In this document: positions 1-33,662 of the stretch, piece after piece
Layout of the letters: each line of letters opens with the position of its first letter
Numbering within the stretch: the first letter of the stretch is position 1
Virus record (IMG/VR): IMGVR_UViG_2529292883_000004
Coordinates: 1 to 37,784 of that record
Reading direction: 5' to 3' (one strand)
DNA length: 37,784 nt
Source of the DNA: a virus
Lineage: Duplodnaviria > Heunggongvirae > Uroviricota > Caudoviricetes
Notes under the pieces: model-generated
The model's database searches: none
What the model saw: the letters and a program-made list of their open reading frames with translations, nothing else
What the model was told of the DNA's origin: nothing
Program-made: the position numbers and the translations under genes

Positions 1-561
1 ATGCCCACTCAAATTTCTGTCGACACTCTTCCTGCAATCACCCACAACCAGGTCCCCGTTATTACAACTGAACTTCTGGCGCAGTTATACGGAACAAAAA
101 TCAAAAACATTTCTGATAACTTTCTGAACAACACGACGCGATTCGTGGTAGGAAAGCATTACTTTAAAATTGAAAAAAACGAATTACGCGAGTTTAAGAA
201 CAGACCCGAAACAATCGGGTTAGTTGGTAAAAATGCCCGTTCCCTTATCCTCTGGACAGAACGTGGCGCAGCCCGCCATGCCAAAATGCTCGAAACCGAT
301 CAGGCATGGGAAGTGTTCGAAAAACTGGAAGACTGTTATTTCAGCCAAAAACAACCACCAGCAACACAAAACTCACCCACCCCAAATGATGGATGCGCAT
401 TACTGATCCACTTTGATAAACACGGTCAGGTAGAGTTCACAGAAAAAGTCCCCGCCGATGCGATGGTATGCACTCTGGAACGGTTTAAATTTTATCTGGA
501 GCAACACGGCTGGCTCGTTGCCCGTAAAGAACAACTGGTGGAAAGGCTGATGCAGCTTTAG
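1..561 (+). CDS. ORF6N-domain protein (antirepressor-like), paralog of 32425..32988
   Basis: 186-aa ORF with ATG at position 1. The C-terminal half is nearly identical to the minus-strand ORF at 32425..32988; the N-terminal motif (ITHNQVPVITTELLAQLYG...RFVVGKHYFKI) is recalled as ORF6N/Bro-N-like. Family assignment is from memory. Confidence 0.55.
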   Translation: MPTQISVDTLPAITHNQVPVITTELLAQLYGTKIKNISDNFLNNTTRFVVGKHYFKIEKNELREFKNRPETIGLVGKNARSLILWTERGAARHAKMLETDQAWEVFEKLEDCYFSQKQPPATQNSPTPNDGCALLIHFDKHGQVEFTEKVPADAMVCTLERFKFYLEQHGWLVARKEQLVERLMQL

Positions 562-2206: not shown

Positions 2207-2746
2207 TTATGACGTGACTCTAGGTTCGTCCGGCCAGACTGTCGCGTTGTAGCTCGCCTCATCCGTCACACCACTTAAATCCAGCGCCTGAAGCGCCTTT
2301 ATGTAAGCCAGCCATTCCGTCAGGCTTTCCTTGTCATCATTAGTGATGATGTCCAGCAGAAGCTCTGACTGCCAGAGGCTGATTCTCTCCTTCGCATCCG
2401 ATATCAATGCGCTTCGTTGCGATTCCGCCTTTGCCTGCCACTCCGCTGCTGTCAGCGTTCGCGCAACCACACTCTCCCCGTCGAACACCCAGTTGCCGTC
2501 GATATCCGCACCGTCCGGCAGCGACTCAACCTCAGCAACACTCAGACTGACAGGACAAAGTGCCGACACATCGGTCGAAATACTGCGCACTATACCGTCA
2601 CTGTCATACGCAACTTTGTATGTATCCTCTGCAAACTGCGTCTGGCATTCATACCAGTCCTGACCATCCTCGCTGATGAGATATGTCGCCCACGCCACGG
2701 GCGGGTTTTCCGGGGTGTATTGCCTGAAATTTTTGATGTTTATCAT
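2207..2746 (-). CDS. Tail fiber assembly protein (P2 gpG-like)
   Basis: 179 aa, immediately downstream of the fiber gene. Internal region (SEDGQDWYE...VAYDSDGIV...SVAEVESLPDG...NWVFDGESVVAR...EWQAKAESQRSALISDA) resembles P2 gpG as recalled, and the protein ends with a WPDEP-type tail. Confidence 0.8.
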   Translation of the reverse strand: MINIKNFRQYTPENPPVAWATYLISEDGQDWYECQTQFAEDTYKVAYDSDGIVRSISTDVSALCPVSLSVAEVESLPDGADIDGNWVFDGESVVARTLTAAEWQAKAESQRSALISDAKERISLWQSELLLDIITNDDKESLTEWLAYIKALQALDLSGVTDEASYNATVWPDEPRVTS

Positions 2747-2758
2747 TAGTGCTCTCCT

Positions 2759-3550
2759 TTACAGTGATATCGCATTTATCCATGTACCGTTTATGCAGTA
2801 CTGAATCTGCCTGTAATAAATTCCGCCAATGTTATCTGCTGAATTTGATCCCGTTTCCTGAACAATAATACCTGTGAGCACATTTCCGGAGGAGAGATTA
2901 CTGGTCCACGACACCTCGTTACCGGAAGGCGTGTATGAGCTGGCGCTACTCAGTCTCACTGCCGACACACCGCCCGTCGTCAGCAGGTAACGGGCATCGA
3001 GCGTACTCAGATCCTGGGTTGCCACATCTCCCAGCCCCAGATTTGTTCTGGCCCCTGACGCAGTCGTGGCCCCGGTACCGCCACTGCTCACCGGCAGTGT
3101 GCCGGTCACGCCCAGCGTGACATTCGCACTGCCATCAAAAGTAACTGCACCCGTACTGCCAAGATTTATCTGGATTGTCCGGCCCGTTTTCAGTTTTGTG
3201 GCTGTATCCGCATTGCCCGTCAGGTCACCCGTGAGGGATGTCCCTGTTATCGCGCCGCCGGTGATATTCACCGCGTCACTGTTCTGACCGGCCATCGTAC
3301 CCAGAGCACCAATGGCGGTGTTCACATTCTCCTGTGAGGCAAAATATTTCGATAACGCCTGCCAGAGTTGTGTGTCATCAGTCGGATCCAGCGTCAGCCC
3401 CGCACTCTCCACAACCTTCACCAGCTCCCGCTGAATGAGGTTAAACCACGCCGCCAGCAACGGCGTTGGCTTCAGCCCTGTGGCAGGCGCGCCGTCAGTG
3501 AACTCGTCGTTTTCATCAACATACGGTGTGATATCAGATATTTTCTTCAC
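2759..3550 (-). CDS. Tail fiber protein with P2 gpH-like C-terminal receptor-binding domain
   Basis: The ORF-track start (GTG at 3571) lies inside a hairpin. An in-frame GTG at 3550 has an AAGGAG RBS 6 nt upstream and gives a protein starting MKKISDITPYV. The C-terminus ...YYRQIQYCINGTWINAISL matches the P2 H ending ...KYINGTWYNVAQV; a Gly/Thr-rich middle is present. Confidence 0.8.
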   Translation of the reverse strand: MKKISDITPYVDENDEFTDGAPATGLKPTPLLAAWFNLIQRELVKVVESAGLTLDPTDDTQLWQALSKYFASQENVNTAIGALGTMAGQNSDAVNITGGAITGTSLTGDLTGNADTATKLKTGRTIQINLGSTGAVTFDGSANVTLGVTGTLPVSSGGTGATTASGARTNLGLGDVATQDLSTLDARYLLTTGGVSAVRLSSASSYTPSGNEVSWTSNLSSGNVLTGIIVQETGSNSADNIGGIYYRQIQYCINGTWINAISL

Positions 3551-3595
3551 GCATATCTCCTTACCCGCCACCGGAGCGGCGGGATCCTCCTGTTA

Positions 3596-6500
3596 TTAAA
3601 CCCAGACTGGATAACGCTCAGACAAGATGCTGAAATCGCTCAGGGATACGCAGTTATAAAACGCATCCGCGTAACTCGTCACGCCAGGCAACTTCTCAAT
3701 GAGCGCACATCCGCTTCCCTGCAATGACCGGCAGTTGTAAAAACAACGGTACACACTGGTTATTTGCGGGTACTCTTCCGCCGGGAGAATGTCATTCACA
3801 TCACTCTCCAGCCCTGTGCAACCGTAAAAGGTGCCCTCAAACGTCGTCGCACTGACGCACCCCGCAAACAAGCCGTCGCCCACAGTGGTCAGCCCCGTAC
3901 AACCGTTAAAGGTCTCTCTGAATGTTGTGACGCTGGCGAGTCCTGCAAACAGTCCGTCTGGTATCGTCATCAGCCCCGTGCAACCATCAAAGGTCTGATA
4001 GAACGATGTCACTCCGGTACAGTTTTCAAACAGCCCGGCAGGCAGCACCGCCAGCCCCGTACAGCCGTAAAAAGTCTGACTGAACGTGGTCACAGCAGTG
4101 TTGTTGTCAAACAACCCTTCCGGCAGTGTCTTCAGACCTGTACAGCCCCGGAACGTCCGGTAAAACGACGTCACACGGTTACAGTTATCAAACAATCCTG
4201 CAGGTAACATCGTCAGCCCCGTACAGCCGAAAAACGTATCCTGGAAAGACCCTGCGCTGACACAACGGTCAAATACCGCCTCAGGCACCGTCGTCAGGGC
4301 GGCACACCGGTAAAATGTCCGGTAGAAGGTTGTCACGCCGTGGCTGCTGTCAAACAGCCCTGCAGGTATTGCTGTCAGCTTCGTGCAGCCACTGAAAGTC
4401 TGATAGAACGACGTCACACCTGTACATCCGTCAAATACACTGTCTCCCAGCGTTGTCAGCTTCGTGCAGTCGTAAAATGTGCCTTCGAACGTCGATGCAC
4501 TGCTGCAGCCTGCAAACGCCCTTTCACCCACCGTTACCAGTTCCGTGCAGCCATAAAACGTCCGGAAGAAGGTCGTCACACGACTACAGTTTTCAAACAG
4601 CCCGGCAGGCAGCGCCTTCAGTCTCACACAGTCGCCAAAGGCATAACTGAACGTCGTCACAGAGACGCAGTTGTCAAACAGCCCTGCCGGTATCGCTGTC
4701 AGAGCCGTACAGCCATAAAAAGCACTACTGAACGTGGTCACGGCAGTGCAGCTGTCAAACATCCCTTCCGGCAATGCCGTCAGTCCCCTGCAGTTATAAA
4801 AAGCACTACTGAACGTCGTCACAGCAGTACAACCTGCAAACACTCCCTCTCCTATGGATGTCAGCCCCGTACAGCCGTAAAACGCCCGGTAGAACGTCGT
4901 AACACTGGTACATCCGGCAAACACGCCGTCTCCCACCGTTGTCAGCCCGGCACAACCATAAAAGGTGTCTTCAAACGTTGTGGCACTGACACAACCGGCA
5001 AACACATTGTCGCCCAGCGTTCTCAGCCCGGAACAACCGTAAAAGGTCCGCCTGAAGGTTGTCACACTTACACAGTCTGCAAACAATCCTGACGGTATCG
5101 CGGTCAGGCCCGTGCATTCGTAAAACGCCTCAAAGAAAGTGGTGACACTGGCGCTGTCAGCGAACAACCCTGCCGGTATCGTTGTCAGCCCCCGGCATCC
5201 CGAAAACACCCCCTCAAACGTCGTGGCACCGGTACAGTCTGCAAATAATCTGGCCGGTACCTCCGACAACCCGGTACATTCGCCAAAAGTCTTATAGAAA
5301 GACTTTGCTCCGGTACAACCGGAAAACAACTCTGCAGGAACTTCCGACAGACGGGTACAACGGTAAAATGTCGTATAGAACGTCGTGGCTCCGGTACAAT
5401 CTGCAAACAATTCCGGGGGGACCATTGCCAGTCCTGTACACCCCAAAAACGACCGGTAAAACGATCTGACACCCGAACAACCAGCAAACACGTCAGCCGG
5501 TATCGTGACCAGTCCGGTGCAACCTTCAAATAAGCTTGCGAATGTTGTGGTACCTGTACAACCAGCAAATACTCTGTCACCCACTGTTGTCAGTGCTCTG
5601 CACCCGTAAAACGCGCTGTCAAACGTCGTGACACTGGTGAGTTTTTCAAATAACCCTGCCGGTATCGTTACCAGCCCCGAGCATCCCGAAAACCCCCCCT
5701 CAAACGTCGCAACCTCTGTGCAGTTTGCGAACAATTTTGCCGGTATCGCTGTCAGGGCCGCGCAGCCATAAAACGTCCGGTTGAATGTCGTCACCCCGGT
5801 ACAACTGTCAAACAACCCTTCCGGTATTGCTGTCAGAGCCGTGCAGCCATAAAAGGCATTACTGAACGTGGTCACGGCAGTGCAGCTGTCAAACATCCCT
5901 TCCGGCAATGCCGTCAGTCCCCTGCAGTTATAAAAAGCCTGGAGGAATGTCGTCACCCCGGTGCAGTCTGCAAATATCCCCTGACCTAATGATGTCAGCG
6001 CCTGGCAGCCATAAAAGGCCTGCAAAAACGTTGTGGCACTGGCACATCCGGCAAACACGCTGTTACCCACCGTGCTCAGTTCCCTGCAGTTATAAAAGAC
6101 CCTGTAAAATGTTGTCGCACTGGTGCACCCGGCAAACACATGGTCCCCCACGGCGCTCAGTCCGGTACAACCATAAAAGGTATCCTCAAACGTCGTGGCA
6201 CCGGTGCACCCGGCAAACACGCTCTCACCCACCGCTCTCAGCCCGGTACAGCCGTAAAACGCCTGACGAAAAGTCGTTACGCCTGTGCAGCCGGCAAACG
6301 CGCTGTCACCGACTGCAGTGAGTCCCGTACATTCGTAAAATGCCTGATAGAACGTCGTGGCGCTGGCGCACTCAGCAAACAGCCCCGGAGGTATCGCAGT
6401 CAGTCCTTTACACCGGTAAAATGCACTGTCGAATGCCGTAGCGTTTTTGCAAAAACGGAATGCGCCGCTGTCAATACTCACCAGACTGGGGGTATTACTC

Positions 6501-7939
6501 GCAAGGTAGCTACAGGATTTTTGTCCCGCCGGAAGTTGACGTAGTCTGACCAGGTCGTTGTAAGCCGTGCTGCTGTACCCGTACACCCTGAACCTGACAC
6601 TCCCCGCCGTTCTCACCCTGATTGTCCGGAGCTCCCCGTCTGCCAGTGAGTCGGGTAACAGGATATTCGCCCAGCCCCCGCTGGTTGTCGTTTCAAGCTG
6701 GTCCGCAGCAACATATCCGTCGCCGAAGCTGACACGACAGTTCACCACATCAGCAACACTGACCAGCGCTTTTGACGATGAAGCACAGACCGAATCAAAA
6801 ACCGCCGGCACGTAACAGCTGACCTGTAATGTTGCCGTGTGTCCGCCGTCATTTGTCGTCACCGTCACCACCGCATCACCTTCGCTCACCCCGCACACGG
6901 TCAGTGAACTGTCGCTGTTGACCACCACCGACACCACGCTTTCATCGCTGACCGTCACAGTCCAGCTCCGGTCTTCAGCATTCTCCGGCCAGACATTCAC
7001 CGCAACCGCGACATGCTCATCATTATCAAGCTCCAGCTCAGTGACCGACAGGTTCACACCGCGCACACTCACGATTTTCCGCAGATTTATCACCTCACTG
7101 CGTACCGGTACTGTCACGTCATCCGGCATATCAACGGCAGCCTCTGCATACGCCGAATACCAGCCGTTCGCAAAATCATCATCCTCCATTTCATACGACC
7201 AGTGCCCTTCACTGTCCGTTGTCACTGTCGCCACATACCGCTGTCCCGACGCGGATTTGATGACAACATTCACCGTCCCCCCCGACACCACCACCCCCTC
7301 ATCTGCCGTGAGCGCACCGGAAAGAACGTGTGTGATGTTGTCCCACGCAATGCTCAGGGCGGCGCTGTACGATGACTGCCACTCAAACGTCACCAGCGTA
7401 TGCGCCGGGGCATAACGACGAAACAGGCACTCCAGGTACGCCCGTGAGGTGGTCACCTCATCCCCCGGCGGGGCCACCACCACGGTCCAGTTAAACCGGT
7501 TGTCGTCACTCAGCAGATGCCCGCTCCACGAAAATCCGCACAGTGGTGTGCGGTACTCACGGATAGTGATGCTGTACCCCATCGTCGCCGCAAGCTCCGT
7601 GAAATACGCCACACTCTGCCCGCCTGTCGACAGCAGTTTCGCCAGAATGAATTTTCTGGCCTGCGCCGGGTCTGTGGTGGATGCCTGCGTCCCGCATTCA
7701 TCATTCAGCCCCAGCGAGGCATACCACTCATCAGTGAGCGCATCCGCCGTTTCCGGGAAGGCGCCCGTTATCAGTGCGCACGCATCAGCGTCACTCTGCC
7801 GGTACGCCTGTGCCAGTCCGCGTATCAGCCTGTGCTGCACACTGTCAGGCAGACGGCTCCAGGCAATCCCTGACGGCAGAAGGTTCAGCATCGCGCGCGT
7901 GTAGTCATCATGTGAAAAACGACTCATCTTTTTCCTCAT
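3596..7939 (-). CDS. Giant baseplate-associated protein: Mu gp48/DUF2313-like N-terminal domain + Ig-like domain + ~30 x 27-aa Cys-containing LRR-like repeats
   Basis: 1447-aa ORF whose start overlaps the stop of the J-like gene (7936..7939). The N-terminal ~190 aa resemble Mu gp48-type baseplate proteins as recalled. An Ig-like stretch follows (VTVSDESVVSVVVNSDSSLTVCGVSEGDAVVTVTTNDGGHTATLQVSCY). Then a long array of 27-aa units with consensus about xVFAGCTGxTTFxxxFYGCTGLTxxGD, flavoured like BspA-type LRRs. Confidence 0.85.
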   Translation of the reverse strand: MRKKMSRFSHDDYTRAMLNLLPSGIAWSRLPDSVQHRLIRGLAQAYRQSDADACALITGAFPETADALTDEWYASLGLNDECGTQASTTDPAQARKFILAKLLSTGGQSVAYFTELAATMGYSITIREYRTPLCGFSWSGHLLSDDNRFNWTVVVAPPGDEVTTSRAYLECLFRRYAPAHTLVTFEWQSSYSAALSIAWDNITHVLSGALTADEGVVVSGGTVNVVIKSASGQRYVATVTTDSEGHWSYEMEDDDFANGWYSAYAEAAVDMPDDVTVPVRSEVINLRKIVSVRGVNLSVTELELDNDEHVAVAVNVWPENAEDRSWTVTVSDESVVSVVVNSDSSLTVCGVSEGDAVVTVTTNDGGHTATLQVSCYVPAVFDSVCASSSKALVSVADVVNCRVSFGDGYVAADQLETTTSGGWANILLPDSLADGELRTIRVRTAGSVRFRVYGYSSTAYNDLVRLRQLPAGQKSCSYLASNTPSLVSIDSGAFRFCKNATAFDSAFYRCKGLTAIPPGLFAECASATTFYQAFYECTGLTAVGDSAFAGCTGVTTFRQAFYGCTGLRAVGESVFAGCTGATTFEDTFYGCTGLSAVGDHVFAGCTSATTFYRVFYNCRELSTVGNSVFAGCASATTFLQAFYGCQALTSLGQGIFADCTGVTTFLQAFYNCRGLTALPEGMFDSCTAVTTFSNAFYGCTALTAIPEGLFDSCTGVTTFNRTFYGCAALTAIPAKLFANCTEVATFEGGFSGCSGLVTIPAGLFEKLTSVTTFDSAFYGCRALTTVGDRVFAGCTGTTTFASLFEGCTGLVTIPADVFAGCSGVRSFYRSFLGCTGLAMVPPELFADCTGATTFYTTFYRCTRLSEVPAELFSGCTGAKSFYKTFGECTGLSEVPARLFADCTGATTFEGVFSGCRGLTTIPAGLFADSASVTTFFEAFYECTGLTAIPSGLFADCVSVTTFRRTFYGCSGLRTLGDNVFAGCVSATTFEDTFYGCAGLTTVGDGVFAGCTSVTTFYRAFYGCTGLTSIGEGVFAGCTAVTTFSSAFYNCRGLTALPEGMFDSCTAVTTFSSAFYGCTALTAIPAGLFDNCVSVTTFSYAFGDCVRLKALPAGLFENCSRVTTFFRTFYGCTELVTVGERAFAGCSSASTFEGTFYDCTKLTTLGDSVFDGCTGVTSFYQTFSGCTKLTAIPAGLFDSSHGVTTFYRTFYRCAALTTVPEAVFDRCVSAGSFQDTFFGCTGLTMLPAGLFDNCNRVTSFYRTFRGCTGLKTLPEGLFDNNTAVTTFSQTFYGCTGLAVLPAGLFENCTGVTSFYQTFDGCTGLMTIPDGLFAGLASVTTFRETFNGCTGLTTVGDGLFAGCVSATTFEGTFYGCTGLESDVNDILPAEEYPQITSVYRCFYNCRSLQGSGCALIEKLPGVTSYADAFYNCVSLSDFSILSERYPVWV
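3784..6440. repeat. Imperfect tandem array of 81-bp coding repeats (about 30 units) inside the giant gene
   Basis: An 81-nt periodicity is visible in the DNA (recurring gtacagccgtaaaa-like cores) and as a 27-aa periodicity in the protein. Boundaries are approximate. Confidence 0.8.
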
Positions 7940-14569: not shown

Positions 14570-14722
14570 CGCCACTCCTCAGCCTGTTGATCCGCTCTGC
14601 CTGCGACGACCACCAGAGAATTTCCCCTGACGTCAGCCCCCACGCCTCGCGCGGGGACCAGTGAAAGAACCACGTCAGTTCAGCCGCCCTCGCCTGCCAC
14701 TGGCTCAGGCCTCCAGGAAAAA
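14559..14722 (-). other. Putative -1 programmed frameshift site (T TTT TTC) and ~60-codon extension of the chaperone (GT-like product)
   Basis: The minus-strand heptamer T-TTT-TTC (plus coordinates 14716..14722) lies in the chaperone zero frame (ggt ttt ttc). The -1 frame then stays open for about 60 codons (FFPGGLSQWQARAAELTWFFHWSPREAWGLTSGEILWWSSQAERINRLRSGDGG) and stops at 14559..14561, overlapping the tape measure start. Confidence 0.6.
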
Positions 14723-18035: not shown

Positions 18036-18201
18036 CCTTCATCTCCGCCAGTGGAACAATCACCCCCAGACGCAGAAGACGCTGCGCCTCGCTTTCGCTC
18101 AGGGTGATCACATTACCCTGCGCCACCCGTTGTCCGTTGTGCTGCACACAACCGCGCAGCACAACATAGTCAACCGGCGCGCCCTTTTTGCCGGACGCCA
18201 T
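18016..18201 (-). CDS. Small hypothetical head-completion protein
   Basis: 61-aa ORF from the ATG at 18201 (MASGKKGAPVDYVVL...), directly after the capsid gene stop, with a GGTGGTG-type RBS. Function unknown. Confidence 0.4.
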   Translation of the reverse strand: MASGKKGAPVDYVVLRGCVQHNGQRVAQGNVITLSESEAQRLLRLGVIVPLAEMKGDDRTG

Positions 18202-19313: not shown

Positions 19314-19715
19314 TCACGGTACCGTGACCGGATTGCGCAGAAAGATTTTCTCTTTCTCCAGCGCCACGCTCAGATCATCAATGTCCCAGCTTTCATCAAA
19401 AATCACCCGGTTTGCGTTGAACTCACCCATCAGGTAGACACCGGCCAGCACATCACCGGACGAGGCATCCGCCATGTCCGCCAGAATCGCCACCGGCGTT
19501 TCGCTGCCGTCCGTCACGCCTGCCCCCTGCTTGCAGAGGGTGTACGCCCCACTTTCCGTGATGCGCCCCAGCACCGTACCGCGCTGATACACCTCGCCAC
19601 CAGTGATGGTCACAGTTTTTGTGACCACCTGAAGCGGTCCGCACAGCAGCTGGTCCGGCTGGTATGCACCGGACCAGTAACCCGGTACCGACGGGTTGTT
19701 TCCGTATGTGCTCAT
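19314..19715 (-). CDS. Head decoration protein (lambda gpD-like)
   Basis: 133 aa between the scaffold and capsid genes; the ...VAILADMADASSGDVLAGVY... pattern resembles the gpD family as recalled. Confidence 0.7.
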   Translation of the reverse strand: MSTYGNNPSVPGYWSGAYQPDQLLCGPLQVVTKTVTITGGEVYQRGTVLGRITESGAYTLCKQGAGVTDGSETPVAILADMADASSGDVLAGVYLMGEFNANRVIFDESWDIDDLSVALEKEKIFLRNPVTVP

Positions 19716-20293
19716 TGCGCTTTACCTCCCGTCGCCTCGTTGTACAGTTTCATGGCGTGCTGTGCCATCGCGTGCGCCTCCGTCGGTGCAGGGCGGACAT
19801 CACGTCCGGTTCCCGGCTGTGGTACATGCTGCATACGGGAAGTCAGTCCGCCTTTCTGGCCTGCGCCCCCTGCCACCGCCGCTTTCATCACGGCTCTGGC
19901 CTGTTTCACACTCATGCGGGTGTTGAAGGCCAGCTCTGCGGCAAGGGCCGGATTTTTCGCTGCATACGGCGTGGCGAAGATGGCTGCGCAGCGATGACGT
20001 TCGCTGGCGCGGGCCTTTTCTTCGTCATCGTCGTCTTCTGCGTTTTCATCGTCGTCGTTATCGTCATCATCCGCACGGGAGCGCGCCTTACGGCTTTCGC
20101 GGCAGTTTTCGTCGTCATCCGCCTGTCCGTCGTCGTCGTTATCGTCGTCATCCGCACGGGAGCGCGCCTTACGGCTTTCGCGACGATCCTCGTCATCCTC
20201 CGCATTCTCCCCGTCGCGTTTGTCCTCCGGATCGTCATCCATTCGCGAACGACCGCCCATGCCTACCAGGTGCATGAAAGAAAATTTACCCAT
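19712..20293 (-). CDS. Putative head scaffolding protein with acidic repeat region
   Basis: 193 aa, translationally coupled to the protease gene (8-nt overlap). Highly acidic N-terminal half containing the duplicated RESRKARSRADDDDNDDD unit; helical Ala-rich C-terminal half. Confidence 0.5.
   Translation of the reverse strand: MGKFSFMHLVGMGGRSRMDDDPEDKRDGENAEDDEDRRESRKARSRADDDDNDDDGQADDDENCRESRKARSRADDDDNDDDENAEDDDDEEKARASERHRCAAIFATPYAAKNPALAAELAFNTRMSVKQARAVMKAAVAGGAGQKGGLTSRMQHVPQPGTGRDVRPAPTEAHAMAQHAMKLYNEATGGKAQ
20051..20182. repeat. In-frame 81-bp tandem duplication inside the scaffold gene
   Basis: Core gtcgtcgttatcgtc(a/g)tcatccgcacgggagcgcgccttacggctttcgcg occurs twice with an 81-bp period. 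Confidence 0.75.
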
Positions 20294-27016: not shown

Positions 27017-27083
27017 ATTCCACCTTCTCATGCTGCATTATCGCAGCCCCTCACTGAAGGGCTGCCCGGATTAACCAGCAGAA

Positions 27084-27762: not shown

Positions 27763-27786
27763 AAAAAAGCCCCGCATCGCGAGGCT
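27763..27786 (-). terminator. Rho-independent terminator after the lysis cassette
   Basis: Minus strand hairpin gcctcgc-gat-gcggggc (one mismatch) followed by tttttt, about 30 nt after the Rz stop. Confidence 0.55.
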
Positions 27787-27817
27787 CATTAAATGGACTT
27801 TGTGATTTGCAAAAAAA

Positions 27818-32424: not shown

Positions 32425-32988
32425 TTAAAGCCGCATCAGTCGTTCCAGCAGCTGCTCTTTACGGGCAACGATCCAGCCGCGTTGTTCCAGATAAAATTTG
32501 AACCGTTCCAGAGTGCATACCATCGCATCGGCGGGTACTTTTTCCGTGAAGTCGACCTGACCGTGTTTATCAAAGTGGATCAGTAATGCGCATCCATCAT
32601 TTTCGGTGGGGGAGTTTTGTGTTGCTGGTGGCTGTTTCTGGCTGAAATAACAGTCTTCCAGTTTTTCGAACACATCCCACGCCTGATCGGTTTCCAGCAT
32701 TTTGGCATGACGGGCTGCTCCGCGTTCTGTCCAGAGGATGAGGGAGCGGGCTTTGGGAGAGATGGGATTTTGTGAGTAGTTTAAAGCTACCCGCAATTCT
32801 TTAAGGTCATTACCAACAACTTTGAAAAAGTGTTTCCCTTCAACGAAGCGTACTTTGTTCTCATGATGATTCTGGCGAATACGCACCGGCTCAGTGCGGT
32901 AAAGCTGCGCCAAAAGTTCGGTGGTAATAACAGGAATCTGGTTATGGGTGATCGGGGAGAGAGTTTCAACAGAAATTTGAGTTGTCAT
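32425..32988 (-). CDS. ORF6N-domain protein (antirepressor-like), first gene after the late promoter
   Basis: 187 aa; C-terminal half nearly identical to ORF 1..561, N-terminal middle divergent. Preceded by cagagggtgtcattATG. Confidence 0.6.
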   Translation of the reverse strand: MTTQISVETLSPITHNQIPVITTELLAQLYRTEPVRIRQNHHENKVRFVEGKHFFKVVGNDLKELRVALNYSQNPISPKARSLILWTERGAARHAKMLETDQAWDVFEKLEDCYFSQKQPPATQNSPTENDGCALLIHFDKHGQVDFTEKVPADAMVCTLERFKFYLEQRGWIVARKEQLLERLMRL

Positions 32989-33146
32989 AATGACACCCTC
33001 TGATGGTTTCTTAATAACTCACCACCGACGACGCCAATCGTCTGGTGGTGAACTGTGCAGGGTTGGCGTAACCGGGAAACCGACCGGCGCGGATCTCTCC
33101 GCCCCCACACAGCCCACCATAATTCAGATGTGCGCGTGCATACGAC

Positions 33147-33172
33147 AATAAAAAACACGCTCGCGGCGTGTA
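33147..33172 (-). terminator. tR'-like rho-independent terminator just downstream of the late promoter
   Basis: Minus strand acacgc-cgcga-gcgtgt followed by tttttatt, about 60-70 nt downstream of the candidate pR'. Confidence 0.55.
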
Positions 33173-33266: not shown

Positions 33267-33662
33267 CTACATAATTCGTTCTACGTATCGGTCCATCTCC
33301 AGTCGGATATCAAGCATCATCAACATGCCATCAATAACCCCTTCCGCTTTCTGCAGGCGCTTGCCAATACAGGTATCCGAACACCCATGCTTTCGTGCCA
33401 ACCCCATAAAAGTCATTCCACCTACGTAATAATCCACCAACAAATCGTGCAAATCCTGATTTTTCTTGTTCAACCGGGCCATACAGCCACAAATTATCAT
33501 TGCATCATCATCAGAACACTGAGGGCGTGATTTCACTTTCGGCGGGATTAATCCTTTAAAACCAGCAGCGATTGACGCCCATGACACATCTTCGTGATTG
33601 TTTGCAGCCCATGCTCCCCACCGCTCCATAACCTGCTGAATATCACGCGCCATCGTTATCAC
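33267..33662 (-). CDS. Late-gene antitermination protein Q (phage 82 / QuuD-like family)
   Basis: 131 aa; [26 protein letters not shown]...[17 protein letters not shown]...[11 protein letters not shown] resembles 82-type Q as recalled. Followed by a promoter-terminator pair. Confidence 0.85.

Follow-up and report, generated by a model that had tools for sequence, protein, structure and literature searches.

An apparently ordinary, lineage-specific intercistronic stem-loop between the gp48-LRR and tail fibre genes of a lambdoid E. coli prophage

REP elements and terminator stem-loops are known barriers to mRNA decay, and hairpins with C(UNCG)G tetraloops were reportedly described in the intercistronic regions of phage T4 by Tuerk et al. 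in 1988. Stable stem-loops impede the 3′ exonucleases of E. coli (review PMC2777011). Leader hairpins also form part of the split translation-initiation regions of T4 genes 25 and 38 (Nivinskas et al. 1999; Malys and Nivinskas 2009, as reviewed in PMC3014915), which are recognised by a hairpin that cuts the spacing to a functional 5–11 nt, the spacing reported for gene 25 being 11 nt (PMC3014915).

Here we describe a hairpin at the junction of a baseplate gene and a tail fibre gene within a 37,784-nt stretch of viral DNA, the whole of which is referred to below as the window. The window represents an E. coli prophage of the lambdoid type that has a Mu-type tail, and its minus strand encodes a Q antiterminator (33267-33662; PF06530, E = 2.5e-52; annotated likewise in the EC12 relative), holins, endolysin, Rz, terminase, portal, capsid, sheath and tube. 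The initial annotation had placed the hairpin between a giant baseplate gene and a fibre gene, and these neighbours can now be named as gp48-LRR and tail fibre. The gp48-LRR gene comes after gp43/44/45/46/47-type baseplate genes, and its product carries an N-terminal Mu gp48-type baseplate wedge domain and a Big_2 domain followed by approximately 30 BspA-type LRR repeats with a repeat unit of 27 aa (81 nt). Relatives differ strongly in this hypervariable array, where as many as 32 columns per 50 nt vary, and the last ∼250 nt of the LRR gene, the spacer and the 5′ end of the fibre gene are conserved; the E24377A copy of the protein is only 844 aa long. The features of the junction and its surroundings are as follows.

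3596..7939, minus strand: gp48-LRR gene (1447 aa), upstream neighbour of the hairpin, recognised from domain evidence
3593..3598, minus strand: tandem stops TAA TAA of the gp48-LRR gene, read from the sequence
3585..3590, minus strand: second SD-like motif, AGGAGG, between the tandem stops and the hairpin, read from the sequence and invariant in relatives
3564..3583, minus strand: stem-loop predicted by folding, with 5′ arm 3583-3576 CCCGCCGC, loop 3575-3572 UCCG and 3′ arm 3571-3564 GUGGCGGG
3557..3562, minus strand: Shine-Dalgarno (SD) sequence AAGGAG of the fibre gene, read from the sequence
3548..3550, minus strand: fibre start codon GTG, as placed by PGAP annotation and N-terminal alignment (ATG in locus L010)
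2759..3550, minus strand: tail fibre gene (263 aa), downstream neighbour of the hairpin, identified from homologues
2207..2746, minus strand: tail-fibre assembly protein gene, the last gene of the late operon, recognised from domain evidence

Because the genes lie on the minus strand, the hairpin is read in the mRNA as 5′-CCCGCCGC UCCG GUGGCGGG-3′, and the junction as a whole (hairpin in round brackets) as ...CCA GUC UGG GUU UAA UAA C AGGAGG AU (CCCGCCGC UCCG GUGGCGGG) U AAGGAG AUAUGC GUG AAG AAA AUA.... The stem begins 12 nt past the stop codon of the gp48-LRR gene (10 nt in the common allele). Between 14575 and 3596, the stretch that runs from the tape-measure gene to the LRR gene, most junctions are overlaps of 1–8 nt and a single one is a 1-nt gap; whether gp46 and gp47 overlap depends on the choice of start. 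The gap of 45 nt between the gp48-LRR gene and the fibre gene is the exception, and is the only uncoupled junction in the baseplate/fibre block.

The position of the hairpin relative to the fibre gene depends on where that gene starts. It had been described as overlapping the apparent fibre start, which is correct only for the mechanical ORF start, an in-frame GTG (3571) that falls within the 3′ arm and is out of frame in all relatives owing to an extra G. PGAP annotates the 263-aa form of the fibre in all E. coli relatives, and close and distant fibre homologues all begin M-x-K-I/V. The real fibre start is therefore GTG 3550 rather than 3571, and the hairpin lies outside the coding sequence. 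The accompanying statement that the hairpin lies just 5′ of the AAGGAG ribosome-binding site (RBS) of a GTG start is accurate, since AAGGAG begins 1 nt after the stem and ends 6 nt before GTG 3550.

The inverted repeat at 3564..3583 is present in the sequence and was recovered by folding as a stem-loop in the late mRNA, on the minus (coding) strand. Its geometry differs from the 6-bp stem and 8-nt loop originally given: that stem is real, but in the predicted fold it is lengthened by one G-U and one C-G pair, so that the stem comprises 8 bp (7 G-C and one G-U) and carries a UNCG-type tetraloop, UCCG, closed by C-G. The minimum free energy (MFE) is −17.6 kcal/mol, with this structure accounting for 87% of the ensemble, and none of 200 dinucleotide shuffles matched its stability (z = −3.3). 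The hairpin also forms in a 101-nt context; the structure of the extended region around it is not unusual (z = −1.0). Ranked against every 30-nt window of the two strands, it comes within the top 0.14%, yet roughly two dozen hairpins in the window have comparable stability, most of them inside genes, and it stands at only about 24th place. Among sense-strand hairpins of compact size (24 nt) in the late operon it is the third strongest. The hairpin is strong but not unique, and the notable thing about it is its position rather than its strength. It shares with the C(UNCG)G hairpins that are said to occur in T4 a tetraloop of the UNCG class, C(UCCG)G, and an intercistronic position in a phage mRNA, and differs from the extra-stable UUCG loop in that its loop is UCCG. 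At position 3567 the window allele lacks one G that relatives have in a run at the foot of the stem, giving a stem of 8 rather than 10 bp; the missing G may reflect a genuine 1-nt deletion or else a sequencing error in the homopolymer.

There is no U-tract 3′ of the stem on either strand, the tail being UAAGGAGAUAUG, and a terminator scan did not report the hairpin site, though it did report U-tract sites elsewhere. We therefore agree with the initial annotation, which had argued from the missing T-tract that the hairpin is not a terminator: an intrinsic (Rho-independent) terminator combines a GC-rich stem-loop, which is found here, with a U-rich tract, which is not. U-tract terminators do occur in the late operon on the minus strand, at 15383-15368, at 19292-19276 (terminator scan) and at 27765-27788, as would be expected if Q-modified polymerase reads through them. 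The first two are likewise GC-rich, similar in size and situated in late-operon intergenic gaps; the hairpin differs from them in having no U-tract and in standing only 1 nt away from the SD of the gene that follows. Given the missing U-tract and the encoded Q antiterminator, any role of the hairpin would be post-transcriptional, and a transcriptional role for such a U-less hairpin is very unlikely.

Comparative searches recovered the hairpin-bearing LRR-type junction in 6 of 5426 complete E. coli genomes, four IMG/VR contigs and two metagenome contigs. The hairpin is kept in 12/12 LRR-type relatives, usually with the one extra G, which extends the stem to 10 bp and its stability to −20.4 kcal/mol. 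Among these relatives the spacer has changed from TAATAA to TAATGA in three loci (L002, L140 and L009), the G indel lengthens the stem and does not break it, and locus L010 retains the hairpin despite a 4-nt deletion in the SD/spacer together with the change of GTG to ATG. Divergence near the junction amounts to only 0–3 variable columns per 50 nt; the LRR-type relatives are too alike for covariation to be obtained from them, and the invariance of the hairpin 20-mer carries no information because the relatives are nearly identical at the junction. More diverged homologues of the junction were sought in phages (megablast and tblastn), in E. coli genomes (near and distant modes), in IMG/VR (by fibre and by LRR C-terminus), in metagenomes (by fibre N-terminus) and in a 5.8-billion protein database (by LRR C-terminus). 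All junction homologues recovered from these databases were either nearly identical or belonged to hairpin-less junction types, and the protein database yielded only distant BspA-type LRR proteins and no further junctions.

The closest of these other junction types is found in a sister lineage (EC12, 2015C-4136CT1, L011-L013 and L135) whose fibre is 90% identical at the N-terminus and 88% over the whole protein. In this lineage another gene precedes the fibre gene, the stop of the one overlapping the start of the other as TGATG, and the hairpin is missing. In distant phages whose fibres have the N-terminal domain in common with this one, the gap is AU-rich and unstructured (Citrobacter phiNP, Serratia BZS1) or almost non-existent, and in Klebsiella P2-like phages, which carry an analogous gpI-LRR fusion, the junctions overlap and are coupled. 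The hairpin was absent from every other junction type that we looked at.

The hairpin looks like an ordinary lineage-specific intercistronic stem-loop, and the explanation that we tentatively prefer, while placing it somewhat below an even chance, is a modest post-transcriptional role as a decay barrier for the upstream segment of the message and/or as a boundary that keeps the fibre RBS open. The setting would be that of a stem-loop in a Q-antiterminated late mRNA, at the one uncoupled junction between baseplate and fibre genes. Going by established ribosome dimensions and the reach of the mRNA channel, a stem that begins 12 nt after the stop would lie beyond the footprint of the terminating ribosome, would not be melted by it and would thus stay folded. 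It would then block 3′-to-5′ exonucleases (PNPase, RNase II) and stabilise the upstream baseplate/LRR segment after a downstream cut, and by locking its own GC-rich arms it would keep the fibre SD and GUG within open, AU-rich sequence where ribosomes could initiate independently. The structure, its position, the missing U-tract, the fibre start and the distribution of the hairpin among junction types are observed, and any effect on RNA decay or translation is inferred. The position is that of the decay-barrier class, a stable stem-loop 3′ of a cistron and probably outside the ribosome footprint. With REP-type and terminator stabilisers the hairpin shares a stable GC-rich stem-loop just past the upstream stop in a polycistronic message, for which a U-tract is not required; it differs from REP-type stabilisers in being single-copy and outside the dispersed REP/BIME families.

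In favour of such a punctuating role we count the stable GC-rich stem, its place in the exceptional 45-nt gap, the enrichment of compact hairpins in intergenic parts of the operon (see below) and the survival of the stem in relatives while the spacer around it has changed; against it we count the EC12/2015C lineage, in which the fibre gene works without a hairpin, the hairpin-free junctions of distant relatives and of the Klebsiella phages, and the unremarkable structure of the extended region. In silico, predicted SD accessibility is 0.75 for the wild type, 0.55–0.57 when a single arm is disrupted and 0.76 in the compensatory double mutant, and deletion of the whole hairpin lowers it only to 0.69, all of these values being context-dependent. 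In this model, predicted RBS accessibility barely depends on the hairpin. The earlier suggestion that the hairpin might modulate fibre translation or mRNA processing is plausible and gained no support from our computations, in view of the missing covariation, the absence of the hairpin from the sister lineage and distant relatives, and the small difference in SD accessibility upon deletion. The opposite arrangement, an operator hairpin that sequesters the RBS, was rejected, as the SD and GUG lie outside the stem and the mean unpaired probability of the SD is 0.75.

Almost as likely as a punctuating role, and likewise below an even chance, is that the hairpin is a functionless GC-rich palindrome that was brought along with, or originated at, the recombination joint between the LRR module and the fibre module, and that persists only because its known copies diverged very recently. 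Homology between LRR-type and EC12-type loci begins within a few nt of the fibre start codon, which puts the hairpin exactly at the module boundary. Several further observations agree with such a relic: the hairpin is confined to one almost clonal lineage and is missing from the other junction types examined, the window has approximately two dozen hairpins of similar strength, mostly intragenic, and the predicted effect on the RBS is minimal. On the other hand, the 45-nt gap makes up 0.1% of the window, so that placement of a top-ranking hairpin there by chance is unlikely, and the sole indel seen changes the length of the stem without disrupting it. Strong compact hairpins are also enriched in the intergenic gaps of the operon, which again argues against a relic: with a first gene map, 4/9 compact sense-strand hairpins of −15 kcal/mol or below were intergenic (p ∼0.001), intergenic sequence being ∼5–6% of the operon, but that map was built from ORFs of at least 90 aa and overstated the enrichment. 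With one hairpin reassigned to a small ORF and another treated as ambiguous, a hand estimate gives p ∼0.01; the reassigned hairpin, at 18139, lies inside a small DUF7210-type ORF, and the ambiguous one is that at 14635, whose gap may be partly coding (see below).

The AGGAGG at 3590-3585, which the initial annotation did not mention and which has no start codon at a usable spacing, raises the question of a tandem or split RBS. The folded hairpin would bring AGGAGG beside AAGGAG/GUG as a ribosome landing (standby) site and so raise translation of the fibre above that of the 4.3-kb upstream gene. We consider this improbable, and give as little credence to its extension, by analogy with T4, into a composite initiation region that would free fibre synthesis from its dependence on a poorly translated LRR gene and boost it, and that would have arisen at the insertion of the LRR module as the equivalent, in enterobacterial lambdoid phages, of the split RBS of T4 genes 25 and 38. 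Two SD-like motifs do flank the stem exactly, and in Mu/P2-type baseplates fibres are expected in more copies per virion than gp48, which would suit a stronger fibre initiation site. With a 10-bp stem the effective AGGAGG-to-GUG spacing is 12 nt, near the 11 nt of T4 gene 25; in the window allele, however, it is 15 nt. The locus shares with T4 genes 25 and 38 a leader hairpin of a baseplate/fibre gene that lies between an SD-like motif and the start and is confined to one phage lineage. The T4-type regions have no canonical SD at normal spacing, whereas here a canonical AAGGAG stands downstream of the hairpin at the optimal spacing of 6 nt before GTG 3550, and the upstream motif is 12–15 nt from the start. 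With this canonical SD present, the gene has no need of a split site, and comparison with relatives lends the idea no support.

We regard as highly improbable the reading of the hairpin as a weak pause or attenuator site, or as the terminator of an antisense (plus-strand) transcript arising from a promoter-like site at 3321-3348. The GC-rich stem would suit either function, and the sigma-70-like match on the plus strand lies ∼215 nt upstream of the hairpin. Promoter-like matches are nevertheless below the chance level (4 found against 9.3 expected), both strands lack the U-tract, and a pause would have to act on a late operon that is transcribed by Q-modified, termination-resistant polymerase. 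The idea that the hairpin promotes frameshifting or stop-codon read-through where the LRR gene ends, to yield an LRR-fibre fusion, can be dismissed as having virtually no chance of being correct: although the LRR and fibre ORFs of the window share one frame with only TAA TAA between them and a GGGUUUA heptamer occurs at 3603-3597, programmed −1 frameshifting calls for an in-phase heptamer 5–9 nt before the structure and for conservation of the downstream frame, and the fusion is excluded because the shared frame is not conserved, the extra G of the relatives altering the relationship of LRR to fibre frame, and because the heptamer is out of phase (zero frame UGG GUU UAA), besides lying 13 nt from the stem and being followed by two consecutive stops.

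Several other classes of element were considered and rejected. The hairpin 20-mer is present as a single copy in the window even when 3 mismatches are allowed, and no copies sharing a consensus were found, which rules out a REP/BIME element or another dispersed or mobile palindrome. Exact matches in 185,579 species genomes were limited to 37 scattered single occurrences in high-GC taxa, none of them in enterics, and the five viral matches comprised the same prophage lineage and one unrelated high-GC contig. In this contig (L092, 829-848) the identical 20-mer has a longer stem and is intergenic, just 5′ of an SD and start, a layout that, from the sequence, we take to be a chance or convergent example. 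Rfam returned matches at chance level only (E ≥ 3.5), far below gathering scores. A target-site hairpin of a DGR was rejected on account of the absence of any TR-like direct repeat of the 3′ end of the gene and of any RT domain in the 29 proteins scanned, which make up a lambdoid/Mu-tail gene set. Chromohalobacter phage YPCBV-1 (L146, 3169-3201) carries a DGR, with Avd annotated, beside a distant fibre homologue, and is unrelated to the window. An invertible fibre locus of the Mu G-segment type was likewise rejected, as the left-end ORFs encode an ORF6N protein and a split alpha/beta hydrolase and include neither an invertase nor alternative fibre segments; no inverted repeats that would suit a recombination site flank the fibre locus.

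By itself the hairpin matters little. If functional, it would be another case of punctuation by RNA structure, setting the expression ratio between a giant LRR host-range protein and a tail fibre, and would show a new module junction gaining expression signals of its own. The practical outcome for annotation is that the fibre start is fixed at GTG 3550 and not at 3571, and that the hairpin is not to be annotated as a terminator.

Other structures and repeats in the window deserve mention in their own right. The strongest compact sense-strand hairpin of the operon, at 14635-14658 on the minus strand (−19.4 kcal/mol, without a U-tract), sits in the gap of 129 nt that separates the tape-measure gene from the gene for the tail assembly chaperone, and is identical in the EC12 relative despite a diverged 3′ flank. 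The gap may encode a frameshift extension of the chaperone, which would make this hairpin a candidate stimulator of a G/GT-type chaperone frameshift. A second hairpin, at 27042-27065 on the minus strand (−19 kcal/mol), lies directly 5′ of ATG 27031 with an SD-like GAGGGG within its 3′ arm, and may be an RBS-sequestering structure. ORF6N-domain genes at 1-561 (plus strand) and 32425-32988 (minus strand) form, with their flanks (1-835 and 32426-33152), inverted copies ∼32 kb apart that are up to 91% identical over 329 nt and bracket the whole late region; such copies might allow inversion, or might stem from a duplication. Downstream of the fibre-assembly gene, an alpha/beta-hydrolase moron at 1180-1967 on the plus strand consists of two overlapping ORFs and is apparently frameshifted, the gene being intact (∼789 nt) in several relatives. 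Finally, an 81-nt tandem duplication with 85% identity occurs at 20028-20189, in a stretch rich in GAC/GAT-type codons within the ORF at 19712-20293.
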